From Patescibacteria group bacterium (GTDB lineage: Bacteria; Bacteroidota; Ignavibacteria; Kapaibacteriales; Kapaibacteriaceae), in contig JBILLF010000002.1 of the NCBI GenBank assembly GCA_044376225.1, positions 24,192 to 88,191 on the forward strand: a stretch of 64,000 bases of DNA, read 5' to 3'. The notes beneath the pieces are model-generated. The model searched no databases, had not been told where the DNA came from, and saw nothing but the letters and a program-made list of their open reading frames with translations. A program made the translations under genes and the position numbers. Of this stretch, positions 3,332 through 57,684 are shown one piece after another (within the stretch, counting starts at the first letter, position 1; each line of letters begins with the position of its first letter).

Positions 3332-4672
3332 TTATCGGACAACCGTCACCGGCACCGTAGTGACGCCCGCGGCCGAGCTCACCGATGCCATATACACTCC
3401 GCTCGGCAGCGTTGCGGTTTCCAGCCAGACCGTCGTTGTCAGGTCCGGGCGCGCAACGGTGGCGTGCGATGGAATCACTGACCGACCTGCCGCATCGCGG
3501 AGGACAACCTCGACTGTACCTGCGTGTTTCGATGTCACATCAATGCGCACTCGATCGGTAGCAGGATTTGGATAGGCTTCAAGACGCACAACGGTCGGAA
3601 GCTCCTCGTCGACAGAAGTTGCCGAACCATGACGCATGACGAATTCACCAACTGGAGCGATGTACTCGTCTCCGCTACGCGTAATTATAACAGCACGCGA
3701 AGCGCCGTCATCATTGCGGAACCCGTCGCGAACCTTGGTCCATGTTGCTCCGTAGTCGGTACTACGAAAAGGTCCGGAGACCTTCTCAACTGTGGCCAGA
3801 ATCAAGCCGTTCGCTCCGATAGCGATCGAGGATACTCGGTTGTTGGTAATGTCGTTGTTATCCCATCCGTTGGTTAAGTACGACCACGATTCACCGTCAT
3901 TGGTAGACTTCATGACGACTGCATTCTTGGTCTTGGTCGAGGCCGCGAGGGAGTTTCTGCCGACATAGAGGTGCCCCTTTTCGTCATAGGCCATCGTCTT
4001 AAACGCATCATCACTCTCTCCCGACGAAGGGTCGGAGTCAATACGTGTCCATGACGCTCCAAAGTTGCTTGAGCGGTAAAGCCCCTTGTTGTAACTCACG
4101 AGCACAAAGAACTTGTCAGAGTTTGGCGTCATGTACGCACCAAAGATGGACGAAATGGCGCTTGGAAGTGTTGACTTTGGAACTTCCGTGAATGTCTCAC
4201 CGCCATCGTCAGAGCGCCGCAGTAGGAGTGCAGTCGTTCCGCCGTCATAACCGAGAAGAATCCTCAGCTTGCCATTGGGGAGCTTCTTCAAATCAAAGAA
4301 GATGCGGGCATTCTGGACGATATCAGGAATGTTGATGTCGAGCTGTTTCCAGGTTACGCCGTCGTCATCAGATCGATAGAGGCCTCGTCCATTAACGGTC
4401 ATATAGATCACGTCGTTGTCGGTCACCCGTATCTGCGAGATCGTGTAAAAGTTGATGCCGTCATCGATCCCCTGATCGAAGGGCTCCCACGTCTGCCCCT
4501 TGTCGGTGGTCCGATAGACCTTGCTGTACTCAGTTCCAGCAAAGACATGCCCCTTGGAGTTTGATGCAAGAGCAACGGTCGGAGCTGCCGGGCCAGTGGT
4601 CTCAGTCCAATACTGCGCAAAGGCCGCTGATGACAAGACAACTGAGAGCGCAACGGTACAGAGAAGGCGCAT
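3332..4672 (-). CDS. secreted BNR/Asp-box repeat protein with a T9SS C-terminal sorting domain
   Basis: Signal peptide (MRLLCTVALSVVLSSAAFAQ). Repeated S-x-D-x-G-x-T-W motifs (TTDKGQTWEP, SDDDGVTWKQ, SDDGGETFTE, STNDGESWSY, STDYGATWTK). The C-terminus LEAYPNPATDRVRIDV...GVYMASV is typical of Por-secretion CTDs. Confidence 0.7.
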   Translation of the reverse strand: MRLLCTVALSVVLSSAAFAQYWTETTGPAAPTVALASNSKGHVFAGTEYSKVYRTTDKGQTWEPFDQGIDDGINFYTISQIRVTDNDVIYMTVNGRGLYRSDDDGVTWKQLDINIPDIVQNARIFFDLKKLPNGKLRILLGYDGGTTALLLRRSDDGGETFTEVPKSTLPSAISSIFGAYMTPNSDKFFVLVSYNKGLYRSSNFGASWTRIDSDPSSGESDDAFKTMAYDEKGHLYVGRNSLAASTKTKNAVVMKSTNDGESWSYLTNGWDNNDITNNRVSSIAIGANGLILATVEKVSGPFRSTDYGATWTKVRDGFRNDDGASRAVIITRSGDEYIAPVGEFVMRHGSATSVDEELPTVVRLEAYPNPATDRVRIDVTSKHAGTVEVVLRDAAGRSVIPSHATVARPDLTTTVWLETATLPSGVYMASVSSAAGVTTVPVTVVR

Positions 4673-4778
4673 GTGGATCCTTGAACGAAGTTCGAACTTG
4701 ACGACAACACCCACCATTATGATGGGTTATGTTTGTGTCGCTTGGAATTTACCACTTTTTCGGGAGCAGGCAGGGGGC

Positions 4779-6223: not shown

Positions 6224-9200
6224 CTAGCGCTGTATCCAGATCTTTCGCAGAACGGGTTCTGCATCGGAGTTGGATGTGGTGTTGACCACGCGAAGGTAGT
6301 AGAGTCCGGGCACAAGCGAGCGCCCATTATCCAGTCGTAAATCCCACTCGATTCCGCCGACGGCTGCCGTTGTGACCAGAGTTGCAAGGGGCGTAAATGC
6401 GGCATCGAGAACTTCAATACTCGACGATGCTGGCAGCCCCGCAATCGTCAGCGTGGTGTGCTCGTTGAGCCTCAGCGGCTGGGGATAGGCATACACCTGG
6501 CCCAGATCTTGTGCAACGACTGTAAAGAGCAGCGACGAGCCGATTCCCGTCGATATGACTTCTCCATTCGTGCCGACAATGTCACGTGCAGTGATCTTGT
6601 ATGGCGTACCACGAGCCACAAGCGGCTGATCAGTTGAAAGGATCAGATCAACGGTGCTGTCATTCACGGCATTCACCGCGCTGATACTGCCGGCCGGAGT
6701 TAGCCGATAGCTCTCAGTCCTTAGTGCCGTTTGCGTGACAGACCTGCTAAAGGTGGCACGCAGGGACAGTGGCGAGAGAACTCGGATCGAACTGAGCACG
6801 ATCTCCTGAACAGACGAAGGGTCCTGCGTGAGTCGAAACCGAAGAGTCGTCGCAGGCACATCGAGCCCCGTAACGGTCCGAAGGCCATTCAGGTCAACCT
6901 CCAGAGTGTCCGGAGCCACCAGCGCAGGAAGCGTAATGACAAGATCGCGAAGTGTGCGGGCGACAATCGAGCGAGCGCTAAGAGGCATGCCGGATCGATC
7001 ACGTGCAACGACCTGCGACCGATACAGTTTTGAAACATCCAAGTCATCGGAGGCGATCACGCGAAGCTGCACACCAGTAACGCACTCATTTGATGTAACG
7101 CTGTCTCGATCGCCAATGATGCGGATGGTGTCGTCATCTCGAAAGACCGTCACAACATTCGAGGATTCACTCAGTATGTCCGGGGCCTGAACGACGGCGC
7201 GCACGGCAAAACGGACCACAGGACCATCGAGATCGGTGTGCGCGATTACACTTCGAGCACCGAACGTCCCAGGCATTCGTCTCAGGGGGGCCGTTGGAAG
7301 ACCCTGCAGAACGAGGCATTCTGTGCCTGCTGAGGCAGTGAACCAGTCCAGGACAACACTGTCACGCAGCCAACGTGCTTTCAGCGACATCGGTGCCGCG
7401 ACGCGCGGCGTAGTTAGTGCCTCTGTGAATGAGAACGATGTCATGGCACCGATCTCATCAACCGTCACGCCATAACCGAGCTCATTTCGTCCATTGCCGT
7501 CGAAGTCATGAATCAAAAACCGCGGCGAGGCAGCGTCATTGATGAAGCGCTTACACGTGATCACCGTGTCCGCGCCGAGTGCATTGCGGCCAAAGACGTA
7601 CAATCGAGGGAATGCGCAGATCACGATTTCCTGGCCCGGTTGATCATCAAGCTGGCCGATGGCTACCCCGTTGCGATATCCTATCCCATAGCGAACGCCG
7701 GCCACGCGCTCCTGCCAGAATGATGCGAATGCATTATCACCCGTCGAGCTCAGGGCCGTGTATGTCCAAACAGAACGTCCGTAATCGCCATTGGCATCGG
7801 GGTCGGTCCTGTCAGGTACACCGAAAAGGACATCTGGCTTTCCGTCACCGGTCACATCCCCAACGGCAACGAACCCCGAGCCCCCTACCCCGGTGGAGGT
7901 GAGCGTATGCGTGACAACGAACGAGGCTCCGGTCCATTCGGCTATGACAAGATCACCATCGTTGTCACCAAAAGCGATTTCCAAACGGCCGTCTCCATCG
8001 AAGTCTCCCGATCCGATACTGATCTCATCAACGCGGTTGGAGGCATTGCCTTCGGCCGGTGGCGTCGGATTCGCGACGGACCCCAAAAGCCGGAATGTCG
8101 AGCCCGTGAATGTAAGCACCTGTAGCCCGTCATCGGACAGGGCTAGGATCTCCTCCCGCCCGTCCCCATCAATGTCGGCCATGCCGGCGGCATTAAGTTC
8201 ACCGCTCGTATCGGCATAGACTACTCTGGTAAAGGGGCTGGAGTCTTTCACAGCTTGCTCGAGCAGCACAACCTTGCCGACGGTATGTACAAGCAGGTCT
8301 GTCAGGCCATTACCGTTAGCATCACCCAGTGCGCGAGGGATGTACACATCCGGCACCGAGTCACGAGTTTGCCACCGACCTTCCACGTACTGACGCGTTA
8401 CGAGTCCGCCAAAGCTACCTCGCCAAAGGTCACTCATCACCACCGTCGGGTGGCCGTCGCCATAAAGATCTCGGACATCGTTGAGAACGTAGCCAGTCCA
8501 TGATACGGGGTTCAGACTCCGCCAGTGCGCATCAGCGCCGGCAGCACGCATGTTCGGGGCGAACGTAATAGCAGTGTCAAGTATCGACCCGAGCTGCGTT
8601 GTGCATCGTAACGCCAGAGTCCGATCGGAGAGGGATCGAACAGTGTCCGGGACCACCATCGAGTGTACACGGCTACGTCTGAGAGACTGAGCAAGAATGC
8701 CCCCAATGGAATCGGGAGCGTCTCGCAGCTCACAGGCGCAGGGTTGCGAAAGCGTAGCCGTCACCACAGAAGTCCGACGCTCGGCGAGCCATACCGGCAC
8801 AACCTCGACTGAGCGCCAGGCAAGCGGCACGGGTGGCTGAACGCGCAGACGACGCAGCACGTCGAGCGGCCGACCATCACTGCTCGTCACCCGTAGTCTC
8901 AGCGTCAGCACAGCGCTGTCGGTCGGTGGAATGCTCACCCTGCCCAGTAGACCGTCACGTACTGCTGTAGAACCACCTCCGATGGTCGTCCACGAGCGCG
9001 GAGCTAGGCCTTCACCCCAGGCAAGTTCGTAGCCGGCAAAGCTCGAGAGCATTGTGCTACCGACTACGTCAAGCTGTGACGTTTTGGAAGGATCGATTTC
9101 AGACTCATTCCGAGGCGACGTGATTTCAACGCGGCTCCACGGTCCATCCTCAAGCACTCGGTCAGCCTGCACCAGGCCGGCTCCGAAGAGATCGTCCCAA

Positions 9201-10489
9201 CCGGGAGGCCCGAGGTCGAGTGACCGTTGCTGCAGCGTCGCACGTACGGATGATAGCGGCATATCGGCAAATCGTTCGCGCATCAATGCCACGGTGGCCG
9301 CCACATAGGGGGCAGAGAACGACGTTCCATTCACAGCCCTGTAGCGGCTTGACACGGACGTTGTCACCACGGCCTGACCCGGCGCACACAGGGCCACCAG
9401 AGCGCCGGAAGAGGAAAATGGTGAACGCCGGTTTTCGTCGCCCGTTGCCGCAACGGCAATAACTTCATCGTAGCCGGCCGGGAACTGCCGCGAAATCGTA
9501 CCAGTATTGCCAACCGAGGCTACAAGAACACAACCGCGCAGGCTTGCATACCGAACAGCATCGTGCATCAGCGGCGAGTCGGCACCATCACCGAAGCTCA
9601 TATTGATCACGTCCACACCTTGCTGTGCCAGATAGACAATGGCCGAGGCGATGTTATCCTCTTCGCCATTGCCCGTCGCGTCAAAAGCTCTAACCATGCG
9701 AAGCCGCGCATCGTAAGCCAGTCCGGCAATTCCTTTCCTGTTGTTCGGCGTGGCAGCGATGACGCCTGCTACAAGCGTTCCATGACCTTGTTCATCAAAA
9801 GGTATAGGGTCGAACGTCCGATCATCACCAAGATTACGAACCGACTGGTTCACCACGTCCACGCCGATGACGTCATCTACCACGCCGTTGGCATCATTAT
9901 CGAGGCCATCAAGGTCTCCGGCAATTCCTCCAAGTGTATCCGTATGCGGCCACGGCTCAAAACGCTGATTACCATTGCGATCCTCCTTCGCTGAGATATC
10001 CAGAGCGTCGATCAGATCTTCATGCGTCCAGTCAATGCCGGTATCGATGATCCCTACAACGATACCTTTACCAGTGGCGCGTTTCCATGCACCGGATGCA
10101 CCGATGCGATGCAAGGCATACTGCCGGTCAGCCAGGGAGTCATCCGTCAGAGCCCCCTCATGAAGCTTGAATCGCATCAGGGGGCGAACCATCTCCACGC
10201 CTTCACCCGAGGCAACGACGGAGGGGTCTATGCCCTCGGGCACCTCGATGACGACATAGCGTCCGAGCCGACGTAGTAGATCTCGTTCCTCGGATGACTG
10301 CGCCTGATCAAGGGCCTTCGAGCCTGTCATCGAGAGTGGCATCACGCGCGCCGCGGGCATGCCGCGCAGGGCCGCCGGCATGATGTCACCCGTGAGTCGT
10401 ATCAGCAGCCGCTGCTGCGCATGAAGGACTGTTGGAGTGCCGAGTACGGTGGCCGCAAGTAGAAGGATGATTCGGGAGAGGGTTTTCAC
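6224..10489 (-). CDS. secreted subtilisin-like serine protease (peptidase S8) with FG-GAP/VCBS-like repeats and a T9SS C-terminal domain
   Basis: Signal peptide. S8 catalytic motifs are present: DTGID (Asp), HGTLVAG (His) and GTSFSAPYVAA (Ser). Further in there are Asp/Gly-rich repeats (DGDGREE, DFDGDGRLE, DVTGDGKPD). The C-terminus GLYYLRVV...RKIWIQR looks like a Por CTD. Confidence 0.75.
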   Translation of the reverse strand: MKTLSRIILLLAATVLGTPTVLHAQQRLLIRLTGDIMPAALRGMPAARVMPLSMTGSKALDQAQSSEERDLLRRLGRYVVIEVPEGIDPSVVASGEGVEMVRPLMRFKLHEGALTDDSLADRQYALHRIGASGAWKRATGKGIVVGIIDTGIDWTHEDLIDALDISAKEDRNGNQRFEPWPHTDTLGGIAGDLDGLDNDANGVVDDVIGVDVVNQSVRNLGDDRTFDPIPFDEQGHGTLVAGVIAATPNNRKGIAGLAYDARLRMVRAFDATGNGEEDNIASAIVYLAQQGVDVINMSFGDGADSPLMHDAVRYASLRGCVLVASVGNTGTISRQFPAGYDEVIAVAATGDENRRSPFSSSGALVALCAPGQAVVTTSVSSRYRAVNGTSFSAPYVAATVALMRERFADMPLSSVRATLQQRSLDLGPPGWDDLFGAGLVQADRVLEDGPWSRVEITSPRNESEIDPSKTSQLDVVGSTMLSSFAGYELAWGEGLAPRSWTTIGGGSTAVRDGLLGRVSIPPTDSAVLTLRLRVTSSDGRPLDVLRRLRVQPPVPLAWRSVEVVPVWLAERRTSVVTATLSQPCACELRDAPDSIGGILAQSLRRSRVHSMVVPDTVRSLSDRTLALRCTTQLGSILDTAITFAPNMRAAGADAHWRSLNPVSWTGYVLNDVRDLYGDGHPTVVMSDLWRGSFGGLVTRQYVEGRWQTRDSVPDVYIPRALGDANGNGLTDLLVHTVGKVVLLEQAVKDSSPFTRVVYADTSGELNAAGMADIDGDGREEILALSDDGLQVLTFTGSTFRLLGSVANPTPPAEGNASNRVDEISIGSGDFDGDGRLEIAFGDNDGDLVIAEWTGASFVVTHTLTSTGVGGSGFVAVGDVTGDGKPDVLFGVPDRTDPDANGDYGRSVWTYTALSSTGDNAFASFWQERVAGVRYGIGYRNGVAIGQLDDQPGQEIVICAFPRLYVFGRNALGADTVITCKRFINDAASPRFLIHDFDGNGRNELGYGVTVDEIGAMTSFSFTEALTTPRVAAPMSLKARWLRDSVVLDWFTASAGTECLVLQGLPTAPLRRMPGTFGARSVIAHTDLDGPVVRFAVRAVVQAPDILSESSNVVTVFRDDDTIRIIGDRDSVTSNECVTGVQLRVIASDDLDVSKLYRSQVVARDRSGMPLSARSIVARTLRDLVITLPALVAPDTLEVDLNGLRTVTGLDVPATTLRFRLTQDPSSVQEIVLSSIRVLSPLSLRATFSRSVTQTALRTESYRLTPAGSISAVNAVNDSTVDLILSTDQPLVARGTPYKITARDIVGTNGEVISTGIGSSLLFTVVAQDLGQVYAYPQPLRLNEHTTLTIAGLPASSSIEVLDAAFTPLATLVTTAAVGGIEWDLRLDNGRSLVPGLYYLRVVNTTSNSDAEPVLRKIWIQR

Positions 10490-18988: not shown

Positions 18989-19969
18989 CTACCCTGCCAT
19001 CTGAGCACGGACTACGTCGTGCAAACGAATTACGCCCTGTAGAGTGTTTGCTCCCACATCAACGACAGGTAGTACCGAAATAGCGCGCTCTTGCGTCTCC
19101 ATCTTTTGCAATGCTTCATACAGCGAGGCATTACACTCTATGGTAGTGGGCGTCATGGTCATCACCTGGTCAACGCTCATTGACGACAACACCGCACCGC
19201 GTTCTACGAGCCGACGCACATCGCCATCTGTTAGAATTCCACACAGTCTGTTTTCGTCCCCCACCACGCATACTATCCCGAGAGCATGCTTGTCAAGCAT
19301 GTGAACAGCTGCCTCCAGGGTAGCCCCCTTTGAAACGACTGGTAGTTGACCTCCAGAATGCATGTGATCGTCCACGCAAAATCTCAGGAGTGATCCAATC
19401 GAGCCGTTTGGATGCGTTTTCGAAAGGACTTCTAATGTGTCTGGTTTTGCATGGGCAACAGCCATTACCAACAAATCCGCCACAATCATCGCGGCTGTCG
19501 TACTTGCCGTCGGAAGAATATTCATTCTGTCATACTCCTGATCAATAGGAGCAAGAAGTGTGATGTTCGAACGCTTTGAGATCGTTGATCCTCGGCGCGC
19601 AGTTACACAGATAACTGCTCCATTATCTTCAGGCAGAACCTCGATGAGGTTGATCAATTCACGAGTATCACCACTCTTCGAAAACACCACCAGCACAGCC
19701 CCATTGGCTACCGCTCCAAGATCACCATGCATTGCATCAACTGCGTGAATGAATGTAGCTGGAACTCCGAGACTCGTAAGAGATGCGGCAAACTTTCGCG
19801 CAACAAAACCCGACTTCCCGATCCCCGACGTAACGATCGAGGATGCCGCAAGTATCGAATCAACTGCGCGTGCGAACTCCTCGTCGAGGTTCTGTTCGAT
19901 AAGATCAATTGAGCGCCGTTGAAGCCTTAGTGCTTCACGCACATCATTGGTAAGTGGCGACAGATTCAT
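18989..19969 (-). CDS. kdsD: arabinose-5-phosphate isomerase (KpsF/GutQ/KdsD family: SIS domain plus tandem CBS domains)
   Basis: SIS motif (VTSGIGKSGFVARKFAASLTSLGVPATFIH...VFSKSGDTRE) and C-terminal CBS pair. Confidence 0.75.
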   Translation of the reverse strand: MNLSPLTNDVREALRLQRRSIDLIEQNLDEEFARAVDSILAASSIVTSGIGKSGFVARKFAASLTSLGVPATFIHAVDAMHGDLGAVANGAVLVVFSKSGDTRELINLIEVLPEDNGAVICVTARRGSTISKRSNITLLAPIDQEYDRMNILPTASTTAAMIVADLLVMAVAHAKPDTLEVLSKTHPNGSIGSLLRFCVDDHMHSGGQLPVVSKGATLEAAVHMLDKHALGIVCVVGDENRLCGILTDGDVRRLVERGAVLSSMSVDQVMTMTPTTIECNASLYEALQKMETQERAISVLPVVDVGANTLQGVIRLHDVVRAQMAG

Positions 19970-19989
19970 AGCTACGAATATGTGCAGAA

Positions 19990-20027
19990 AATGAAAAGCC
20001 CCCGACGCTGAAGCGCCGAGGGCTTTA
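19990..20027 (-). terminator. rho-independent terminator candidate for the 20050..24765 gene (minus strand)
   Basis: Hairpin AAAAGCCC...GGGCTTT. Read on the minus strand it is followed by TTTTCATTTTCT. Confidence 0.5.
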
Positions 20028-20049: not shown

Positions 20050-23000
20050 TTAGCGGACAATCGTGAGGGTCTTCGACAGTACTGTCTCACCAACCGTGAG
20101 CTTGTACATGTATGAACCGCTTGCGACATCCACACCATCTTCACCACGACCATCCCATTCAACTGCATATGGCGTCTGCTGTCCTGCAACAACGTTGTTG
20201 TAGACAGTCTTGACGACATTGCCCATGAGGTCATACACCTCAAGCTTGACCTTCGAGCTTGATGGGATCGTGAATGTGAAGGTTGTCTTTCCAGCCGATG
20301 GATTCGGGAAGCTGCTGTTGAGAGCAACTTCAGAGGCTGAACCGAATTCGACACTGACAATGTTCGAGAAGTTCATCGAACCGCTGGCATCAACTTGACG
20401 CAGACGGTACTCGTACGATGTGCCCGATGTTACATCGGCATCAAAGTACTTGTAGTTCTTGGTCGTGTTAGAGTTTCCAGCACCGTTGACGAATCCTACA
20501 GATTTCCATGGATTCTCGGCGTTCGATGTTTCGTCGGTACATGTGAGAGAAGCCTTGCCAGTGAGATTCGTGACTTCCTTGACTGCGCGGCGCTCAACAT
20601 GGAATCCAACGTTATTCTTCTCACTCGCTGTCTCCCAGAAGATATCGACGCCAGCAGCACGACCACGAGCATCGAAGAAGGACAGTTCAACCGGTGCATT
20701 ATCGCAAGGAACAAAGATTGGCGGATTCGAGAATGAACGGTTGCCGAAGAAAGGACGCAGGAGTGGAATCCACGATCCACGTGTGAAGGTGGCATAACCG
20801 AGGCTCGTTCCCATAGCGTCGAGGTGTGCATAACCAGGGTTACCGATCGTTGGAGTGAATGGTACCCAGTCACCGCTGAAACGCGTCAATTCATATGCAA
20901 AGCGGTTGTCATTGAGCAGCGATCCGGCACGGTTACGCACGCGGAAGTTCTTGTCAACGAGCAGTGAGCGGTTTCCAAGACCGAACGTCGGAACGTCGGA
21001 GTAGAGCGTTGTTACAAGTCCCATACGGGTTTCAGAAGCACCAAGCTCGTAACCTTCCGTACCCATCTGAGCTACCGAAGCCCAATAGTCCCCAGGAGCA
21101 ATAACCACTGGTGTTGCAAGCAGATATGTCACATACTTACCAAACTGGGGCTCTGTAAATGCACCGGTTTCATCTTCACCGCGACGGCGAAGAATCGTCG
21201 AGTTAGCAACACGCTCGTCACCTGGCAGACCGCCTTGGTCACGATACAGAGAGAAGGAGATGTTCAACACGTCCTGGTTGAGTTCTGCCCAGAATGCCTG
21301 ATAGCCAGCGAGTGTGTCCTGTGAGAACAGTGTAAATCGCATTGCGATCTGACCAGAAGCATTACCTGCATCTGCACCGGTACCGTTGTCAACGCCTGCA
21401 GGGAAAGTGCCCCACGTTGAACCAGCCGTGTACTGAACGGTTGGACCGGTCAAGCTCGACTGCCATCCCGATGCACGTGCTCCAAGTGAGTTACCGCCAT
21501 GATTAAGACCCTTACCGGTAATACCCGTGAACTGAAGCTTCGGCACGTCGTTGACCGGATTGCTTGGATTCGTTTCGTAGGCAAACGAAGGACCAAACGT
21601 CATACGGAACATCGTGAACGTAGAGTCGTTCAGCGTGTCAAGGTCGTTGCCAGGGAAGAAGATACGTCCAGTGACCTTGTAGTTACCAGGTGTAGTTGTA
21701 CGGAAGTTGGCATCTGGGAACGGAAGGATCACTTCGCGATTACCAGCTAGCGTTGGAACCGTGATGCTACGGCAATAGATCTGCTGATCTTCATTACCAT
21801 CTGGCTTGATCTGGAGACGAACTGAGAAAGCCGGAGCGGCAATGTTCGTATTGTTCGAAAGCTTCACACGGATAGGCACGCGTGTGGCCTGCGAAGCAGG
21901 AGCCATCGTGTATGGCCAGATCAGCTGGATGTTGCTGAACTCAATGTCTGTGACTTCGTCAGGATAAAGCAGCTTGACGTTGTCGATGAAGAAGGCATCT
22001 TCGTCATCCGACGGCGCTGGTGGCTGCGAGTTCATAACACAGCTCGCACGAATGCGGAAGCGGAAGTTACGTGCGCCTTCGTTGACCCAGCGAAGAACGG
22101 TGTCAGGAATAGGAACAGTGATCTTGTAGTACTCTGCATCCTTACCATCGTCAAACAGATCTTCGCGAAGACCACCGAGTGGTGGGGTAGCTGTGTTGTT
22201 CAGCTGCAGGTTGTAGTCAGCAAGGTCGAAACCACGGGCTGATCCACCACCACCCCAGATTCGGAATGGTTGCATGTACGCTGTTCCGCGTGACTGGTAG
22301 TCAAGAATCCAGTTCTGGATGTTCGTGATTCCCGTGATACCATCGCTTGAAGGGCGAGCAAACTCAACGAATACTTGGTCTGGATTGCGGTAGCCCGGCG
22401 TAAAGCCATTTACCGCAAGCATGTTGACGCGGTGCTCAGGTCCGATGAGACGATTGTCCGAGAAACCGCGACCAATGTTTGTAAGCTTACCAGAACGCTG
22501 ATAGGAGATCGACAGAACGGCGCGCTTGCGGCGGACGAGGTTGATTGGGAACGAGCGGATCTCATCGCCACCGTACTGACCTGCTGGAGGAATGTCCACG
22601 TTAGCAAGGTTCCAACGGTTGAGCTTGATAACTGGTGACTTCAAACGGAAGATGTCTGCATTGGCTGCAGCATACTCACCCCGTGGTGGTGGTGGGTTGT
22701 TTGTTGCCTCGTCACCATCAACAACTTCAGCTTCAATGTTCACCCACTTGAGGACCGAAGGCATAGCAGCACCACCGATGAGGTGGTACTCGTTGACGTC
22801 ATCAGAGAACGATGTGAGACGACGCATCGAGAAGATGCGGATACTAGTTGTATCGTCAAACGGCCACTGATCACCGATAGGCTGATTGAGAGAGTCCTTC
22901 GGCTCAGCAATCACCGTTGTAAGGAGACGACCGATTTGGTCATCGATAAACGGATTTGGCTCAAACGGCGGGAAGATCACCTTGATGAACTCGTACGGAA

Positions 23001-24765
23001 GTACGAATGTGCCCGCAGGCTGGTATGGCTGGTTCACACCGTTGATGTCACAGCGGAACACTTGCGAGATGTTCGTATCACGCAGAGCGGCGTCAGTGAC
23101 AGCACGCGAGGTGTTGTACACGATCTTGCCAGTAGCTTCATTAACGATCCGGAAACGCACGCGGAAGTTCGTACCCTGTGGTACGTAGTTCACGCCTTGT
23201 GGGCCCTGAATATCGTTGGTCAGACTCTGTACGATAGCAACCGGTTGGATAGCACCAAGACGGTCTTCACCGGCAAGCAATTCGTAGTTGTTGGCGTTAG
23301 CTGGAGGCACAACCACCGAGAAAGCGAGGTTGGCGTTGTTGTTCTGCTGGCGCACACGGTACGACACGTTGATAACGCGAAGTGTGTTGCGGAACTGCTT
23401 GAACTTGATTGCAAGGAAGTCCTTCGGCACAGTGTTGTCATCGTTACGTGTGCTGATCGCACGAACGCCACCGACAGGATCGGTGTCAACGTTGTACAAG
23501 TACTCTGTGCTTTGAATGTACTTCGGAGTATTGAAGTCCAGAGTCGTAACGGTAGGCATCACCGAAGGGAAACCCGACCAGCTCAGACGACGTGCTGGGC
23601 CCGTCACTCCAACCGTTGAGTTACAGCGCATCCACACTGTTGCAGGGTGCGGCTGCAGTGCCGTACGCGGAGCCAGACCTGAGAAACGCTCATACTGAAC
23701 CGTGACAGAACTGTCGTTGCGGTTAAGCGTAACCTGCAGCGAGAAGCGATAGTGCTCACCAGCATTTGGACGGTTGTTGGCAACGAACGTTACATTCCAA
23801 GTGATACCACCAACACGAGCGGTCTTTGCACCGATCGGCGTCAGGTTGACGTAGTAAATCACCAGCTTGTCGTTCGACGGCGAGCGCTTGTAATACACGC
23901 GTGAGAAGTCATCAACAGCGTTATCGCCCGAGTTGTATACAGAAACCTGGAGGTCATCCCACGCTGGCGCAATCAGCTGAGGAAGAGTCGAACCCCAAAC
24001 AGCCGACAGTCCTGCAGCGTCAAGCATACGGTTGGTCGTTGTGCGGATACCACCCGTTGCCGTCGTTGGAGAACCACCGCATGCTACATTGTTAAAGCCC
24101 CAGTTATCCGCAGTGGCATCAGCCATTCCGTCGCCGGAACGAGCGCGCGTATCATCGGACATCGGATCGTAGGCCGAAATCACGCCCGGACGCACTTCCA
24201 GTGAGGTGCGGGCTACTGGGTAACCGAATTGGTCAATCGTGTAGAAATATCGGCGGTTTGACAGCGCGATCAGACCGTTCGTCGAAACGTAGAACGAGTC
24301 CTGACGGACTCCGTTGAAGAAGAACGGGAATCCGATCGAGATCGGCCCTGCAAAAGCGTTATCAGTAGAGTCACGTGCATCTCCCGGGTTGCGGAAGAAT
24401 GCCCATCCACCGTAGACGTTCTGGGTCGGATCTGTCCAGTACGAATTCGGAAGCTGCTTCGCACCGGAAACAATACGGCGCCAAGTGCCGGGCTCGGTCA
24501 GGGTGTCGACAAACTGCGACGGGTCCGGACGCCAGAAGTCTGGTGCTTCGTCGTCCGAATCCACGAAGTAGTATCCCGTGGAAATGGCAGGGTTTGTGCG
24601 TGCGTTAGGTCCCGTTGCTGTGAACGGTTGTGGATATGACGCAACGGGGTTGCGCTGCCCACTCTTACGCAACACGTCCTCGCCATCCTTACCATCGGCA
24701 GCCATCGCCAGCGTAACGCCGACAAGCCCCATCGTGAGTACAAGGAATAGCAGTCTGCGGTTCAT
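20050..24765 (-). CDS. very large (about 1571 aa) secreted protein of unknown function with a T9SS C-terminal sorting domain
   Basis: Signal peptide MNRRLLFLVLTMGLVGVTLAMA. There is no catalytic motif I recognise. The C-terminus ALNSSFPNPSAGKTTFTFTI...KVKLEVYDLMGNVVKTV...SGSYMYKLTVGETVLSKTLTIVR is a classical Por CTD. An upstream in-frame ATG at 24813 is possible. Confidence 0.65.
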   Translation of the reverse strand: MNRRLLFLVLTMGLVGVTLAMAADGKDGEDVLRKSGQRNPVASYPQPFTATGPNARTNPAISTGYYFVDSDDEAPDFWRPDPSQFVDTLTEPGTWRRIVSGAKQLPNSYWTDPTQNVYGGWAFFRNPGDARDSTDNAFAGPISIGFPFFFNGVRQDSFYVSTNGLIALSNRRYFYTIDQFGYPVARTSLEVRPGVISAYDPMSDDTRARSGDGMADATADNWGFNNVACGGSPTTATGGIRTTTNRMLDAAGLSAVWGSTLPQLIAPAWDDLQVSVYNSGDNAVDDFSRVYYKRSPSNDKLVIYYVNLTPIGAKTARVGGITWNVTFVANNRPNAGEHYRFSLQVTLNRNDSSVTVQYERFSGLAPRTALQPHPATVWMRCNSTVGVTGPARRLSWSGFPSVMPTVTTLDFNTPKYIQSTEYLYNVDTDPVGGVRAISTRNDDNTVPKDFLAIKFKQFRNTLRVINVSYRVRQQNNNANLAFSVVVPPANANNYELLAGEDRLGAIQPVAIVQSLTNDIQGPQGVNYVPQGTNFRVRFRIVNEATGKIVYNTSRAVTDAALRDTNISQVFRCDINGVNQPYQPAGTFVLPYEFIKVIFPPFEPNPFIDDQIGRLLTTVIAEPKDSLNQPIGDQWPFDDTTSIRIFSMRRLTSFSDDVNEYHLIGGAAMPSVLKWVNIEAEVVDGDEATNNPPPPRGEYAAANADIFRLKSPVIKLNRWNLANVDIPPAGQYGGDEIRSFPINLVRRKRAVLSISYQRSGKLTNIGRGFSDNRLIGPEHRVNMLAVNGFTPGYRNPDQVFVEFARPSSDGITGITNIQNWILDYQSRGTAYMQPFRIWGGGGSARGFDLADYNLQLNNTATPPLGGLREDLFDDGKDAEYYKITVPIPDTVLRWVNEGARNFRFRIRASCVMNSQPPAPSDDEDAFFIDNVKLLYPDEVTDIEFSNIQLIWPYTMAPASQATRVPIRVKLSNNTNIAAPAFSVRLQIKPDGNEDQQIYCRSITVPTLAGNREVILPFPDANFRTTTPGNYKVTGRIFFPGNDLDTLNDSTFTMFRMTFGPSFAYETNPSNPVNDVPKLQFTGITGKGLNHGGNSLGARASGWQSSLTGPTVQYTAGSTWGTFPAGVDNGTGADAGNASGQIAMRFTLFSQDTLAGYQAFWAELNQDVLNISFSLYRDQGGLPGDERVANSTILRRRGEDETGAFTEPQFGKYVTYLLATPVVIAPGDYWASVAQMGTEGYELGASETRMGLVTTLYSDVPTFGLGNRSLLVDKNFRVRNRAGSLLNDNRFAYELTRFSGDWVPFTPTIGNPGYAHLDAMGTSLGYATFTRGSWIPLLRPFFGNRSFSNPPIFVPCDNAPVELSFFDARGRAAGVDIFWETASEKNNVGFHVERRAVKEVTNLTGKASLTCTDETSNAENPWKSVGFVNGAGNSNTTKNYKYFDADVTSGTSYEYRLRQVDASGSMNFSNIVSVEFGSASEVALNSSFPNPSAGKTTFTFTIPSSSKVKLEVYDLMGNVVKTVYNNVVAGQQTPYAVEWDGRGEDGVDVASGSYMYKLTVGETVLSKTLTIVR

Positions 24766-24983
24766 GCAAACCTCAAAGAAACTGTGATGAAGTATGTGTT
24801 TTTGGTTTCTCATTCTGTGCTCGACGTAGCTCTGTTCGGATCAATAACAACACGGAAGGTAATTCGTTACATGCGTACGAATACACTCCTCCCGAAAGAG
24901 CATCGGACAATATTCTGATTTTAGGTGAATTAGTCAAACAATTTTTGTCCCCAAATGGCATTCGGTAGAAATTTGGGTGGTCA

Positions 24984-25610
24984 TCAGTCAGCCCCCTGCC
25001 ATGGCACGGAATCCACCAGTCCCCCACCGCCCAAGATGGCCCTGCAGAATGCCTCGAGCGCTCTCGGGTAAAGATCATGTTCGAGGTGCTTAACCCTCTG
25101 CTGAAGGACCTCGGCAGAGGGATGATCGGCAAGCGGGAGGCTTTGCTGGGCGAGAATAGCCCCCTCGTCATAATCAGCGGTTACCCTGTGGACGGTTGCT
25201 CCGGTGACGGTCTCACCGGCTGCAAGTACGGCACGATGCACATGAAGCCCATACATTCCAACCCCGCCGTATTTGGGGAGAAGAGCCGGATGTACGTTCA
25301 GCACGTTGCCGTTGAGCATAACAATGGTGCTCTCCGGCAGTTTGCGCATGAACCCGGCCAGCGCCAGCACCCCGACAGAATGCTCTGTCAGCTTCTGCTC
25401 AAGGACCGATGCCCAATCTTCGGCTGGCAGGACGATCCATTCGACGTTATGCCGGCGCGCAACGTCGAGAATTCCGGCATCAGCCCTCGTTGATAGAACG
25501 AGCCGGACTCTGTAAGGGGCTTCGGGGCGCAATCCGTGACGGATAAGCGCATCTGCATTGGAGCCAGCACCACCTCCAAGAATTGCCACCTCGATGGGCA
25601 CTCGGTACAT
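24984..25610 (-). CDS. purN: phosphoribosylglycinamide formyltransferase
   Basis: Formyl-transferase N-domain motifs (ILGGGAGSNADALI...NVHPALLPKYGG...H). It is adjacent to metH. Confidence 0.75.
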   Translation of the reverse strand: MYRVPIEVAILGGGAGSNADALIRHGLRPEAPYRVRLVLSTRADAGILDVARRHNVEWIVLPAEDWASVLEQKLTEHSVGVLALAGFMRKLPESTIVMLNGNVLNVHPALLPKYGGVGMYGLHVHRAVLAAGETVTGATVHRVTADYDEGAILAQQSLPLADHPSAEVLQQRVKHLEHDLYPRALEAFCRAILGGGGLVDSVPWQGAD

Positions 25611-43009: not shown

Positions 43010-45457
43010 TCAGTGGAGGATAAGCTTCCGAATCGTGCGTCCACTATGTGACCCATCGATCGACAGAACGTAGAGGCCACCCGCAACAACAGCTCCGCGC
43101 AGATCGCGCCGGTCCCAGCGCAGCTCGCCACTGCCATGGATCTGTCCTATGCGTTCTCCAGCTGCCGTGAACACCGTCACGGACAGATCTTCGTTGTCGA
43201 GCCCCTTAACAGTCACCTCGCCAGCGGCGGGATTTGGATACACTCGGATAGACGTGGCGTCTGAAGACTCGTCATCCGCATCTACACTGGTCACCTCCGT
43301 ACGGGCCACAACAAAGGTCACCAGACCATAATCCGTGCTGATACCAACAAGACCGTCTTCCCCACTCTCCTGTGTTGTTTCGATACAGAGTGAAAACTTG
43401 TCGCCCTGTTTGAGATCGATCGGTGTATCAGGAAATGGTGAGAGGCTCCAAGTCGCAGCCGATGGGCCAGACAGGCGAATTCCGGTGATCCGCGTTGCCT
43501 CGCACGGCATAGGGACAGACTCATTACAAATGCGCTCACCAAACTTACCCTTGGCAAACCAAAGTGTATCGCGATTGAACTGCAGCGACGGTGTTCCTTC
43601 GCCTGAGACCGTCAGCGTCTGCGACCCGATGTTCGTAAAGAACGTAATCTTGGCTGTGAACGGACCGGGATCCTTAGGTAGAATACGAAGCTGAAGATCA
43701 CGCCGCTCATTCACATCTAATGTGAAGGGAGCTGTAAGATTCAACACTTCAACCTTGACGATCGGCTCTGCAGAGAAGGAGGTGACAACAACTGGAGAGC
43801 CACCCTCATTCACAAGCATGCCTGTAAATGTGGTGTCACGCGAAAGACAGGCTACCCACGGCGCGAGCGCCAATGATGATGACGCGAGGACCAGCTTACC
43901 CGGCCCAGCGACGGAAACAATCTTGACCGTGCATGTTCTCGAGGAAACCGTGTCGCACTTGTTAAACACCGCACACCGGTACACACCGCTATCTGCTTTT
44001 GTTACCCCGGCAATGCGCAAAATTCGATCCTTACCCGAGGGCACAATTGCACCATCACGGTACCATTGGTACACGAGCGATTCTCCACTGGCCTCCATCG
44101 ACAGGACAAGCGTGTCACCGACACGGAGAGATCGGTCGATAGGTTGCGTGCGGACCTGCGGGAGCTCAGTCACATCAAGCTTCGCCTCCGACGATGTAAC
44201 GCTCGGTGAACACGAGCCTTCAATGCGACAGCTGTAGCTTGCCTCGTCGAACAATTCAGCCCGTGCGAACCGTAAGATCGGAAGTGTGTCCTCAGGCATC
44301 GGCGAGCCATTCTTTAGCCATTGATATCGAAGATCCGAGCCCGTGGCAGCAACGGAAAAAGATACACTGTCGCCATCGCAAATAGCCCGCGGCAGGGGCT
44401 GACGAGTGATCTGTGGTCGTTCACCAATGGTCACCTGCACTTCATTGGAATTGACGCTAGTCGAACAAGCGAAGATCACGCATTGATAAACGCCTGCCTC
44501 GGCCTGCGTCACCTGATTGATCGTCAATACGGGGTTTGTGCCCCCGGGGATATCTACACCATTGCGGCGCCAGCGGTAAACCACATTCGATCCTGTCGAA
44601 GACACCGTAAGGGTAAGGGGCTTGCCAGCGCAAACGAACGTTGGCTGCGGCTGTAGTGTGATGTTGGGTCCAGCCTGAATTGTAATGGCAGCCGTCCGAG
44701 TTATCTCCTCCTGCGTGGTCGCATCGACCATGCGAATGATATAATTGCCGGCCGGCACCGATGCCGGGATTTCGTACACGGTGGAGAGTCCAGATGCAGC
44801 GGTGGTATTGATCACCTCGGTGGTCTGGAAATTGTCACGCGACATTTCTACTCGAACCAAACCCAGCCCCGTCTGCTGCCATTCGACATCGACACGCGTC
44901 CCGGTACAGAATGATGCGCCGGCAACAGGCTTCGTGAAGTTCGCTCCAGTAACCGTGATGTTGATGTTCCCCGTAACGGCCCAGTCGTCTGCATCAGAAT
45001 CATTCCCGTCGCCATTGACGGCATTACCGACTCCAGCGAAATTGTACACCCCGTGAGCAGCAGGAGCGGTCCATTGAAAACCAAACCGTGCACCGTTGCC
45101 ACCAAAGGCCGTCGTCTGCGTGTGTGTAAGCTCACCCGCACGGATTTGCGTGTTGGGCCCCGGCGTGAACGTACCGACGTTACCCGTGCCGCTTCGGAAC
45201 GCAAGATTAAACCCCGCGTTTCTTAGCTGGCCGTGGTTCACGACGAACGTGTAGGCATTCACTGAGCCCGTCTTGACAGTTCGTGGGCCCTCGAGCAGAA
45301 CGTTGGTATTGGCGGAAGCTCCACCATGACAACCACCACACCCGACGACGTATGACCCCGTTTTACCCCCACTGTTTGCCAGGGTAATCGCCGGGACGAT
45401 TATGGCAGCCACAGCGACCGTCGTGAGTATGCGACAAAGCGATCGTGAAATCTTCAT
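43010..45457 (-). CDS. secreted multi-Ig-like (I-set/Ig-like repeat) protein with an N-terminal CxxCH-containing domain and a T9SS C-terminal sorting domain
   Basis: Signal peptide. GCGGCHGG near the N-terminus. At least four repeats of about 90 aa carry the Ig-like pattern (YRWRRNGVDIPGG...AGVYQCV; YQWLKNGSPMPED...SYSCRI; YQWYRDGAIVPSG...SGVYRCAV). The C-terminus IRVYPNPAAGEVTV...GLYVLSI is a Por CTD. Confidence 0.6.
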   Translation of the reverse strand: MKISRSLCRILTTVAVAAIIVPAITLANSGGKTGSYVVGCGGCHGGASANTNVLLEGPRTVKTGSVNAYTFVVNHGQLRNAGFNLAFRSGTGNVGTFTPGPNTQIRAGELTHTQTTAFGGNGARFGFQWTAPAAHGVYNFAGVGNAVNGDGNDSDADDWAVTGNINITVTGANFTKPVAGASFCTGTRVDVEWQQTGLGLVRVEMSRDNFQTTEVINTTAASGLSTVYEIPASVPAGNYIIRMVDATTQEEITRTAAITIQAGPNITLQPQPTFVCAGKPLTLTVSSTGSNVVYRWRRNGVDIPGGTNPVLTINQVTQAEAGVYQCVIFACSTSVNSNEVQVTIGERPQITRQPLPRAICDGDSVSFSVAATGSDLRYQWLKNGSPMPEDTLPILRFARAELFDEASYSCRIEGSCSPSVTSSEAKLDVTELPQVRTQPIDRSLRVGDTLVLSMEASGESLVYQWYRDGAIVPSGKDRILRIAGVTKADSGVYRCAVFNKCDTVSSRTCTVKIVSVAGPGKLVLASSSLALAPWVACLSRDTTFTGMLVNEGGSPVVVTSFSAEPIVKVEVLNLTAPFTLDVNERRDLQLRILPKDPGPFTAKITFFTNIGSQTLTVSGEGTPSLQFNRDTLWFAKGKFGERICNESVPMPCEATRITGIRLSGPSAATWSLSPFPDTPIDLKQGDKFSLCIETTQESGEDGLVGISTDYGLVTFVVARTEVTSVDADDESSDATSIRVYPNPAAGEVTVKGLDNEDLSVTVFTAAGERIGQIHGSGELRWDRRDLRGAVVAGGLYVLSIDGSHSGRTIRKLILH

Positions 45458-55182: not shown

Positions 55183-55962
55183 CTACATCGAGTGAATCTG
55201 CACGTCACCATGATGGTCGATGGCCACATAGGTCGATGGCTTATCGGTCCAGCATCCGGAGTTGACGTACGTGACATCATCGATTTGCTTGATCCCGGGC
55301 ATGTGCGTGTGACCGCAATGAACCACCTGAGCCTGATGCCTGCGGCGTCCATGTCCAGCTGCATCGTGTGCAATCTTGTCGCTCAGGCGCAGCCACTTCT
55401 TGCTGGTGCGCTTTACCCAGCGGCTCACGCGGTGGTGCGGATCGATGCGCTGCAGCAGCAGATACAGCCATGAGGCGATGGCCGTGATGGTCACATGTTT
55501 GGTGATCCATCGGTCAAACTGGTGTCCATGAATGGCCAGATGACGCTTGCCCGCAACCGTAAAGACGATCTCTTCATGCACCGGTACTCCCAGAAGGTGC
55601 GTCAGGATCTCGGCCACACCACCGTCATGATTGCCCACCACCCAGACCACGTCTACGCCCCGACGTGGATTTGACAGACGTCGCAACAGCGACAGAACCT
55701 TCCAGTCATCCTTGGTAAGACGCCTGAAGTTGAGATCGTCAAAGACATCGCCGTTGAGGATCAGGCGTTTGTAGATGTGCGTCTTGAGCATCATCACCAG
55801 CGCCTTTGAGCGGGCAACATCCGAACCCAGGTGCAGGTCGGAGATGATGATGGTGTCCACGTCAAGAGGCACGGCAAGATGAAGGTCAATCCGCTCGCGC
55901 TCACTGACCTCGACGTCTACGATGATATCATCATCGATGTCATAGTCGGCGACGGAACGCAT
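55183..55962 (-). CDS. calcineurin-like metallophosphoesterase (LpxH-like UDP-2,3-diacylglucosamine diphosphatase family)
   Basis: IISDLHLG, GDVFD and GNHD are metallophosphoesterase motifs I-III. Start uncertain (55962 or 55998). Confidence 0.6.
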   Translation of the reverse strand: MRSVADYDIDDDIIVDVEVSERERIDLHLAVPLDVDTIIISDLHLGSDVARSKALVMMLKTHIYKRLILNGDVFDDLNFRRLTKDDWKVLSLLRRLSNPRRGVDVVWVVGNHDGGVAEILTHLLGVPVHEEIVFTVAGKRHLAIHGHQFDRWITKHVTITAIASWLYLLLQRIDPHHRVSRWVKRTSKKWLRLSDKIAHDAAGHGRRRHQAQVVHCGHTHMPGIKQIDDVTYVNSGCWTDKPSTYVAIDHHGDVQIHSM

Positions 55963-56704
55963 GGATGTGCTGTCGGAAATATCCCGTGGGGAAGTCATCA
56001 TGGAGTCCGTATCGAGTAGGCTTTTCCGTTTCTGGTAAATAGGCAGTAGCAAACAGCCAGTCCCAGATGGCAAGCTTGGTCGAGAAGTTGCGATTATGCG
56101 AACGGGGATCGTCGGCATGGTGCCAGCGGTGCATCTCCGGACCGTTGATCACGCGTTGCAGACGTCCCGTGCGCACGTCAATATTCGAATGGATGTACAT
56201 GCCCCAAATGGCATCAATGGCCCCCTTTATCACGGCTACCTCCGGTGAGGCCAGCAGCACGATCGGGAGGAACTCTACCGTCTGGTTGATGAGGATCTCA
56301 AGACTGTGCGAGCGTGATCCGCTAAGCCAGTCCACATCGGTGGTTGAATGATGAGCCTCGTGAATTCGCCACAGCAGTGCATTCGAGTGTTGCCAGCGAT
56401 GGAACCAGTAGATGTAAAAGTCGTGCACCAGAAGAAACACCACCATCTGCGCCGCCAGTGGCTGCGAGCGCAGAAACACAAGGCGGCTCAGGCCGCTCTG
56501 CTGGTCAATCCAGCCGATGAGGGCAAAGATCACCAGACCCAGCACGTAGCTCTGGGCGATGGCGTACAGGCCCAGATCGGTCATGAACCCACTCCTGAAA
56601 AGGGGCTGACCCGACGTGTAGGGAAACAGCCGTTCAAGGACGACCAGCAGGCCCCCTGCTAGGATCACCATCGTGGTGCAGACTATTGCCAGCGACAGCT
56701 CCAT
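55940..56704 (-). CDS. fatty acid hydroxylase superfamily integral-membrane di-iron enzyme (sterol-desaturase-like)
   Basis: Multiple TM segments plus three histidine boxes (HRWQH, HEAHH, HRWHH). Confidence 0.7.
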   Translation of the reverse strand: MELSLAIVCTTMVILAGGLLVVLERLFPYTSGQPLFRSGFMTDLGLYAIAQSYVLGLVIFALIGWIDQQSGLSRLVFLRSQPLAAQMVVFLLVHDFYIYWFHRWQHSNALLWRIHEAHHSTTDVDWLSGSRSHSLEILINQTVEFLPIVLLASPEVAVIKGAIDAIWGMYIHSNIDVRTGRLQRVINGPEMHRWHHADDPRSHNRNFSTKLAIWDWLFATAYLPETEKPTRYGLHDDFPTGYFRQHIHAFRRRL

Positions 56705-56707
56705 ACC

Positions 56708-57607: not shown

Positions 57608-57684
57608 GCGAAGCTCCCTGAAAGATGATTGGTTCCCATCATGAATGCTGTAGAGTCGTCAGGTCAATTGCCGGTTGGCGCAGG

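Follow-up and report, generated by a model that had tools for sequence, protein, structure and literature searches.

What kind of protein is exported from the cell, carries no known domain beyond the one that marks it for export, and is held under purifying selection as tight as that on core enzymes? The question is raised by a gene on the reverse strand of contig JBILLF010000002.1 (NCBI GenBank assembly GCA_044376225.1), from a bacterium deposited as a Patescibacteria group bacterium and placed by GTDB in the Kapaibacteriaceae (Bacteroidota, Ignavibacteria, Kapaibacteriales). The window analyzed here comprises 64,000 nucleotides (nt) of this contig, positions 24,192 to 88,191 of its forward strand. 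An earlier note, made from the letters alone, had picked out a gene of 1571 amino acids (aa) as the largest in the window and had described its product as a type IX secretion system (T9SS) cargo protein with no recognizable domain outside its C-terminal sorting domain (CTD). The gene is indeed the largest, the next open reading frame (ORF) encoding 1421 aa. We propose that its product is a very abundant, T9SS-anchored surface protein, coat-like or S-layer-like and possibly ligand-binding, which would represent a new passenger family and the main surface protein of its lineage; we give this proposal about an even chance of being correct. The analysis shows the export signals, a non-repetitive all-beta architecture, restriction to one lineage, strong purifying selection, the codon bias, and a promoter and terminator dedicated to the gene; that the protein is highly expressed, is anchored at the surface and acts as a coat or a binder is what we infer. 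We favor a principal surface protein because the product is an acidic, all-beta, non-enzymatic and apparently abundant T9SS cargo with few Cys and His residues.

The gene and its export signals

The open frame around the gene extends over 20050-24813 on the reverse strand. We place the start at the Met codon at 24765, which yields 1571 aa, because the resulting length and N-terminus agree with those of homologs (the nearest relative, P0001, also has 1571 aa, and the family consensus begins with a signal sequence of the form MKxxLLLL, or M-(K/N)-x-x-LLLL) and because an invariant GAGG lies 5 nt upstream. The ORF is a real gene for a secreted protein, whose mature product has a mass of ~170 kDa, a pI of 5.45, 7 Cys and 7 His, and a composition enriched in Gly, Thr, Asn and Ser. 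ORFs on the opposite strand within it (e.g., 22783-23619, forward strand) are not genes; they are kept in 43 loci only because the sense strand is strongly conserved and codon-biased. The coding sequence and the parts of the protein, with the evidence for each, are as follows.

20050-24765 (-): coding sequence, 1571 aa and stop codon (ORF list, homolog lengths, family consensus)
24700-24765 (-): Sec (signal peptidase I) signal peptide, residues 1-22, A-M-A cleavage motif (sequence reading)
Residues 23-59: linker, extended
23581-24588 (-): D1, residues ~60-395, large beta-sandwich (AlphaFold2 N-part)
23011-23523 (-): D2, residues ~415-585, beta-sandwich (AlphaFold2 N-part)
22486-22998 (-): D3, residues ~590-760, beta-sandwich with invariant GDxWPFDDT (AlphaFold2 N-part, family alignment)
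21964-22377 (-): D4, residues ~797-934, jelly-roll (AlphaFold2 N- and C-part)
21601-21945 (-): D5, residues ~941-1055, seven-strand Ig-like, CARDB-like module (AlphaFold2 C-part)
20716-21501 (-): D6, residues ~1089-1350, large jelly-roll or beta-sandwich (AlphaFold2 C-part)
20344-20691 (-): D7, residues ~1359-1474, Fn3-like beta-sandwich spacer (AlphaFold2 C-part)
20062-20310 (-): T9SS type-A CTD, residues 1486-1568 (TIGR04183, FlgD_ig)

Both export signals claimed in the earlier note hold up. The signal peptide, MNRRLLFLVLTMGLVGVTLAMA followed by AD, was read by eye rather than called by a predictor; it has an n-region (NRR), a hydrophobic core that is kept in the family consensus, and cleavage after A-M-A and before A, and the signal is conserved family-wide. 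A lipoprotein signal is ruled out, there being no Cys in the signal peptide. At the other end of the protein, residues 1486-1568 match the Por-type sorting domain TIGR04183 (NCBIfam) at 32.9 bits, against a curated cutoff of 23, and Pfam FlgD_ig at 34.4 bits. PF18962 scores 22 bits here, below its cutoff of 27, and is found in 25 of 30 family members; the CHU_C (type-B) CTD model remains at 17.5 bits, likewise under a cutoff of 27. A profile search of the PDB matched the CTD to that of PorU (structure 6za2), and AlphaFold2 (AF2) predicts an Ig-like sandwich at this position.

The window encodes three further proteins with type-A CTDs: a glycosylhydrolase-like protein of the F510_1955 family, the 1421-aa protein, which is an S8 subtilisin-like protease, and a choice-of-anchor-V protein. 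Their genes are, in the same order, the following.

3332-4717 (-): T9SS cargo gene (type-A CTD)
6224-10489 (-): T9SS cargo gene (type-A CTD)
43010-45457 (-): T9SS cargo gene (type-A CTD)

Purifying selection and codon usage

Among syntenic orthologs, conservation of the protein equals or exceeds that of core enzymes. Its identity in the near clade is 82.8%, compared with 75.9% (MetH), 78.9% (PurM), 51.8% (PurN) and 50.8% (KdsD); the mid-clade values are 69.3% (the protein), 66.1% (MetH) and 72.1% (PurM). Against the closest relative, the ratio of nonsynonymous to synonymous divergence (dN/dS) of the gene is 0.011, and no other of the nine syntenic genes has a value as low (metH, 0.040; purM, 0.037; purN, 0.236). 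Horizontal transfer as the source of the high identity is ruled out, since dS in this comparison is 0.86, like that of the neighbors, and GC content at third codon positions (GC3) lies within ~1.2 standard deviations of the window mean. In more distant pairs the dS of the gene stays at 1.1-1.3 while that of its neighbors reaches 1.7 or saturates, values to be read with dS near saturation beyond the closest pair; the apparent suppression of dS indicates selection on the synonymous sites of the gene.

Codon usage points in the same direction. The effective number of codons is 44.0 at a synonymous GC3 (GC3s) of 0.56, where 59.8 would be expected, and this is the largest deviation among the 45 ORFs of the window. 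GGT, CGT, GCT, TTC, AAC and AAG are favored, while GGG, CCC, CGG, CGA, AGR, ATA and AAA are avoided, and relative to bulk genes the bias takes a direction that correlates with the one seen in RpoD, GDH and SecA (r = 0.45, p = 3e-4). The pattern recurs across the family: in 34 of 58 homologous loci the gene ranks first in codon bias among its neighbors, and in 42 it is among the top two, where chance would yield about 5 first places. The three other T9SS cargo genes of the window show ordinary codon bias. From these evolutionary signatures, and from the regulatory ones described below, we infer that the gene is probably very highly expressed; high expression alone can explain its slow evolution.

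Constraint is not distributed evenly along the protein. In the far clade, conservation declines from the N-terminus toward the anchor: residues 60-180 are the most conserved part, with 61% identity and 23% of columns invariant, D3 is the second most conserved module at 53% identity, and the Fn3-like module and the CTD fall to 38-39%.

Domain architecture and predicted structure

The earlier note could assign no domain to the roughly 1350 residues between the signal peptide and the C-terminal modules, and it had named clear matches to an adhesin, glycoside hydrolase or SprB family, or loss of the CTD in a profile search, as findings that would speak against its description. No such matches were found, and the CTD lies above its curated cutoff. 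Pfam and NCBIfam searches with the whole protein, and a scan of 30 aligned family members, detected no domain, or no shared domain, besides the CTD. Searches of PDB sequences by phmmer, with a full-length profile and with a D1 profile were likewise limited to the CTD. When the seven modules were compared separately with Pfam at E <= 10, the sole return was a sub-threshold match to CARDB (PF07705) on residues 935-1060 (14.9 bits, E = 0.032, cutoff 22.7), where a seven-strand sandwich is predicted. No catalytic-domain model was matched, whether Pfam, NCBIfam and the PDB were searched with sequences, with profiles or module by module, and the protein contains neither an HExxH nor a GH16 ExDxxE motif. 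No internal repeats were detected by hhalign among nine segments.

AF2, a check that the note had proposed, was run on two overlapping parts with alignments of 106 sequences, and returned confident all-beta models with no catalytic fold: residues 25-945 (the N-part) with a mean pLDDT of 86.9 and a pTM of 0.79, and residues 790-1571 (the C-part) with a mean pLDDT of 89.1 and a pTM of 0.71. Both are almost wholly beta and resolve into about seven unique jelly-roll or Ig-like modules, whose boundaries, taken from DSSP strings, dips in pLDDT and indel hotspots, are approximate. D1 carries the motifs STGYYFVDSDD, DSTDxAFAGPIxIGFPFxFNG, YVSTNGLIALSNRRY and IAPxWDDL. D4 has two acidic motifs, FDDGKD and, at the end of the module, DDxDxFFIDNV, which suggest a putative structural Ca2+ site. 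The Fn3-like module that the note had placed just before the CTD appears in the models as a predicted beta-sandwich at ~1359-1474 (D7), with the conserved motifs WETASExNNxGFxVERR ... YxYRLRQVDxDG, though no Pfam Fn3 model matches it.

No global match to either part was found by Foldseek in the PDB (TM-scores of 0.1-0.16 overall); what it returned were generic beta-sandwiches or jelly-rolls, lectin-type ones among them. The N-part produced just five matches at E <= 1e-3; including weaker ones, its matches are the carbohydrate-binding modules (CBMs) CBM11, CBM22 and CBM4, PbSGBP-B, Eph ligand-binding domains, BT3745 and jelly-roll enzymes, all to single domains and with target-normalized TM-scores of 0.5 or less. 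D4 by itself resembles jelly-rolls of the CBM11, CBM22 and Eph ligand-binding type, with target-normalized scores up to 0.5. The viral BFVD library contained nothing specific for the N-part. The C-part matched Ig-like domains arrayed in series, those of SpyCEP, alpha-2-macroglobulins, complement, factor XIII/TG2, an archaeal S-layer protein and PorU, with TM-scores of 0.10-0.16 and root-mean-square deviations of ~30 Å. Kinship with alpha-2-macroglobulin, transglutaminase or PorU is ruled out, as the protein has no thioester domain, papain-like core or C25 domain.

We also considered an assignment of D1 to NIDO (PF06119), a domain that is not known to have a defined function of its own, and found it unsupported. 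Several D1 motifs (GFPFxFxG...Y.STNG...F and APxWxDL) resemble the NIDO consensus, a resemblance that goes no further than one weak Pfam match, below threshold, in 1 of 30 family members (E = 0.058) and none in the protein of the window; searches with the D1 profile, in the PDB and among 5.8 billion proteins, bring up no NIDO protein.

The family and its distribution

A word-indexed search retrieved 319 relatives, of which the best 120 are all full-length (~1470-1625 aa), 40-98% identical to the protein, and without a functional name. An exhaustive phmmer search with residues 25-1224 as a single-sequence query found 180 proteins at E <= 1e-3 among 1.84 billion cluster representatives, and 228 copies came to light when 185,579 species genomes were scanned. 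Mapping of the phyletic distribution, another step that the note had suggested, confines the family to metagenome-assembled genomes (MAGs) of the Kapabacteria/Ignavibacteria type. Among the matches listed, all copies come from MAGs labeled Kapaibacterium, Ignavibacteria or Chlorobiota, a few of the bin labels among the carriers being obviously unreliable, and the most distant relatives likewise come from Kapabacteria or Chlorobiota MAGs. Isolate names place many of the matching MAGs in lakes and rivers. A search for literature on Kapabacteria or Ignavibacteria together with T9SS or metaproteomics yielded nothing on the family. The family is thus small, lineage-restricted, syntenic and non-repetitive, unlike a typical variable adhesin.

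Distant relatives share only the middle modules (~455-1225) and the CTD. In one of them, P0178 (1567 aa), the middle modules and a type-A CTD are kept and Reg_prop propeller repeats replace the N-terminal D1, which suggests that the middle region may serve as a scaffold on which heads can be exchanged. Searched by itself, the D1 profile retrieves only fragments of the same family and nothing in the twilight zone. Three proteins encoded on long contigs match D1 only: P0282 (384 aa, 33.6-kb contig), P0285 (459 aa, 26.6-kb contig) and P0237 (261 aa, 27.6-kb contig). Each may be a D1 protein that stands alone, or else the product of a gene call that was frameshifted or split.

Some genomes carry paralogs. 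A second, diverged copy follows kdsD in some loci (L002, L008, L012, L031), and two or three tandem copies occur in others (L040-L044, L050, L066, L072). The second copy, of the P0043/P0044 type, is ~52% identical, has no Pfam-detectable CTD and lies between kdsD and the RodZ-like gene described below.

Expression signals and genomic context

The gene has its own promoter and its own terminator, and it lies between kdsD and purN, as the earlier note had it.

24984-25610 (-): purN
24909-24937 (-): sigma-70-type promoter, TTGACT, 17-nt spacer, AATATT (consensus scan)
24766-24902 (-): 5' leader, ~137 nt, from a putative transcription start (alignment of orthologs)
19985-20026 (-): intrinsic terminator, 14-bp stem with 9 G-C pairs, 4-nt loop, T-run (hairpin scan)
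18989-19969 (-): kdsD

Over 15 orthologous upstream regions, the TTG of the -35 element and the A..TT of the -10 element are invariant. The leader consists of a variable middle and a conserved block beside the start codon (~24766-24797), which includes the GAGG Shine-Dalgarno motif at 24771-24774, 5 nt before the ATG and invariant in 15 orthologous loci; similar motifs precede just 12 of 29 genes in the window. A riboswitch or structured leader was rejected, since no Rfam family matches and the leader folds no better than its shuffles (z = -0.05).

The note had pointed to a strong candidate terminator behind the gene and had concluded that the gene is a monocistronic unit. The terminator is borne out: a hairpin and T-run stand 15-35 nt past the stop codon in 65 of 76 family copies, with stem sequences that differ. 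Most second copies do without this terminator. The monocistronic unit is supported in part, by the conserved promoter and terminator. At the kdsD side, however, only ~15 nt separate the T-run from the kdsD ATG at 19969, and kdsD has no Shine-Dalgarno-like motif. Such a gap leaves no room for a kdsD promoter, and kdsD is therefore probably expressed by read-through of the terminator or from a promoter within the 3' end of the large gene.

The gaps that separate the gene from its neighbors, put by the note at about 80-220 nt, are 80 nt on the downstream side, where a KpsF/GutQ-family arabinose-5-phosphate isomerase is encoded (kdsD, 207 bits, above cutoff), and 218 nt on the upstream side, where a PurN-like formyltransferase (127.8 bits, below the equivalog cutoff of 150.1) is followed by metH. 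The gene order is kept even at 40% identity: purN is followed by the 1571-aa gene, kdsD, an oppositely oriented RodZ-like gene, and a block with an AtuA-like gene, a glycosyltransferase and purM; the distant clade adds a 563-aa Rossmann-type protein before purN and a small HIT-family gene before kdsD. A functional operon was considered and rejected, because the conserved neighbors (purN, HIT, kdsD, RodZ-like, purM, recQ, metH) are unrelated housekeeping genes. For the same reason the synteny says little about function and reflects the gene order of the lineage. We note that purN and kdsD evolve unusually fast for housekeeping genes, their products being 68% and 79% identical, respectively, to those of the closest relative (L001), against 93-94% for MetH and PurM.

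Some 30 kb from the gene, at 55183-63432 on the reverse strand, is a cluster resembling those for the biosynthesis of nonulosonic acids of the sialic, pseudaminic or legionaminic type. Nonulosonic sugars cap the glycan of the T9SS-exported S-layer proteins of Tannerella forsythia. The genes of the cluster are these.

55183-56118 (-): metallophosphoesterase
56708-57607 (-): NeuB
57685-58494 (-): short-chain dehydrogenase/reductase (SDR)
58491-59879 (-): aminotransferase
59815-61637 (-): split transketolase
61634-62425 (-): CMP-sugar cytidylyltransferase
62422-63432 (-): 336-aa protein without a family

Discussion

Type-A surface cargo of the T9SS is already known, and what this gene adds is the passenger, an uncharacterized, lineage-specific family that has no close structural relatives and evolves in an unusual way. 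In the established route, proteins are exported by Sec, recognized through the type-A CTD, passed over the outer membrane by SprA/PorV and relieved of the CTD by PorU, to be transferred to anionic lipopolysaccharide (LPS) or released (PMC10202324). We posit that the precursor described here would be exported by Sec through its N-terminal signal peptide and carried over the outer membrane by the T9SS upon recognition of its CTD, and that a PorU-type sortase would most likely cut the CTD and link the new C-terminus to anionic LPS. A mature protein of ~160 kDa would then project from the surface, with the Fn3-like module, which is poorly conserved, nearest to the membrane, six unique modules of jelly-roll or Ig-like type beyond it, and the most conserved part, residues 60-180, at the distal tip. 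Its role would be that of the main coat (S-layer-like) protein of the lineage, of a ligand-capturing protein, or of both.

There is a clear precedent for such a coat. The S-layer of T. forsythia is built of TfsA and TfsB, which are T9SS cargo and which, like the 1571-aa protein, exceed 1100 aa, are beta-rich and combine a signal peptide with a C-terminal T9SS domain (PMC4175972, PMC10202324). TfsA and TfsB are abundant and both exported and anchored by the T9SS (PMC4175972, PMC10202324), properties that for the 1571-aa protein we propose from its sequence. The two systems also differ: there is no detectable sequence similarity, the 1571-aa protein is not enriched in O-glycosylation motifs, a single gene stands here in place of a co-assembling pair, and the host belongs to a different class (Kapabacteria). 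SprB, RemA and other giant T9SS adhesins are likewise very large, T9SS-exported beta-sandwich surface proteins; those of the SprB/RemA type are highly repetitive, however, with type-B CTDs and PorP/SprF partners (PMC10202324), whereas the 1571-aa protein has a type-A CTD, no repeats, no SprF-like neighbor and far stronger constraint. The surface glycan-binding proteins (SGBPs) and CBM-bearing T9SS cargo of the Bacteroidota offer a third comparison, as they too display strings of Ig-like and jelly-roll domains on the outer membrane, and the best structural matches include PbSGBP-B and several CBMs. SGBPs are, in contrast, lipoproteins encoded in polysaccharide utilization loci (PULs), while the 1571-aa gene has no lipobox, no PUL context and no CBM match by hidden Markov model (HMM), and the structural likeness is at the level of the fold only.

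A more specific form of our proposal holds that the protein is the S-layer or principal coat protein of the Kapabacteria, representing a new and structurally unprecedented T9SS-exported family under housekeeping-level purifying selection, whose novel conserved distal N-terminal module would serve lattice contacts or ligand capture. We advance this form tentatively, as a possibility that we doubt more than we believe. Several observations weigh against a coat, or against the broader proposal of an abundant surface protein. Proteins that form coats or S-layers usually evolve faster than most, whereas the 1571-aa protein is extremely constrained. Its extreme constraint, together with an exposed tip that would be its best-conserved part, speaks more for a specific site of binding or catalysis than for a passive coat. 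O-glycosylation motifs of the form D(S/T)(A/I/L/V/M/T) number 8, against 5.5 +/- 2.2 expected by shuffling, and hence are not enriched. The reference set for codon bias contains no ribosomal-protein genes, and every member of the family is MAG-derived. Finally, no core T9SS machinery gene (SprA/Sov, PorV, PorU, GldKLMN) was seen within the 64-kb window; across genomes, CTD proteins co-occur with the T9SS core genes (PMC10202324).

As a rival reading, the protein may be a surface glycan-, polymer- or particle-binding protein of the lectin or adhesin type that forms no lattice, a T9SS-anchored chain of CBM-like jelly-rolls in which the conserved distal module, above all, would capture a conserved ligand for uptake or attachment. 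This we regard as rather unlikely, though as a serious rival: the N-part finds its best structural matches in CBM11, CBM22, CBM4, PbSGBP-B, Eph ligand-binding domains and a BT3745-like jelly-roll, the module farthest from the anchor is the most conserved, as would be expected of a defined binding site, and the replacement of the N-terminus in relatives that retain the middle modules (Reg_prop in P0178) suggests exchangeable binding heads. Those fold matches are weak, however (TM ~0.13 overall, and no more than 0.5, target-normalized, for single domains), and they point to no binding site; no CBM model matches, no conserved PUL-like or TonB-receptor context adjoins the gene, and the SGBPs and adhesins known so far are fast-evolving and do not normally lead in codon bias. 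Less probably, the protein is a new extracellular enzyme, such as a jelly-roll lyase, hydrolase or amidase whose active site is missed by existing models. Very strong purifying selection over the whole length, numerous invariant residues (Asp, Arg, Glu, Tyr, Trp), and the presence of jelly-roll enzymes (GH16, PL7-type alginate lyase, PNGase F) among the weak Foldseek matches would all be in keeping with catalysis. Yet neither the single sequences, nor the 30 family members, nor the profiles recover a catalytic family in Pfam, NCBIfam or the PDB, the GH16 and HExxH motifs are absent, just one His is nearly invariant and no Cys is, and slow evolution can be had from high expression alone, so that an enzyme seems to us quite improbable.

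It is also conceivable that the protein is not an end-product of the secretion pathway, and that it instead serves the T9SS or the biogenesis of the outer membrane as an accessory or structural part, retaining its CTD as PorU and PorZ do; we consider this very improbable indeed. Throughout the lineage the gene usually occurs once per genome, in conserved synteny and with high sequence conservation, and in most loci it adjoins kdsD, a gene for the Kdo precursor of LPS; the CTD of PorU, which is of the same type, is the best NCBIfam and PDB match of the last 90 residues, and one distant relative bears PorZ-like Reg_prop propeller repeats. The likeness to PorU and PorZ ends at the CTD, however, which is all that their models match: there is no C25 peptidase and no beta-propeller, and the other 1480 residues are unrelated. 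Furthermore, the family is absent outside genomes of the Kapabacteria type although the T9SS is widespread, components of the machinery are not normally the most codon-biased genes, some genomes carry 2-3 tandem paralogs, and the remaining conserved neighbors are unrelated housekeeping genes that carry little functional information.

The proposal of an abundant, T9SS-anchored surface protein remains the one that we prefer, and at present the 1571-aa protein should be viewed as a well-characterized conserved hypothetical protein, and not as a new mechanism. Its passenger of ~1400 residues, made of confidently predicted modules without close structural relatives, is a good target for structural work. 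Should the proposal prove true, this would be only the second well-supported surface layer built by the T9SS, and the first to come from outside the class Bacteroidia. Kapabacteria are widespread, though uncultured, and a protein that dominates their surface would shape their contacts with phages, grazers, particles and dissolved polymers, and would provide a ready marker and antigen for their enrichment or imaging.

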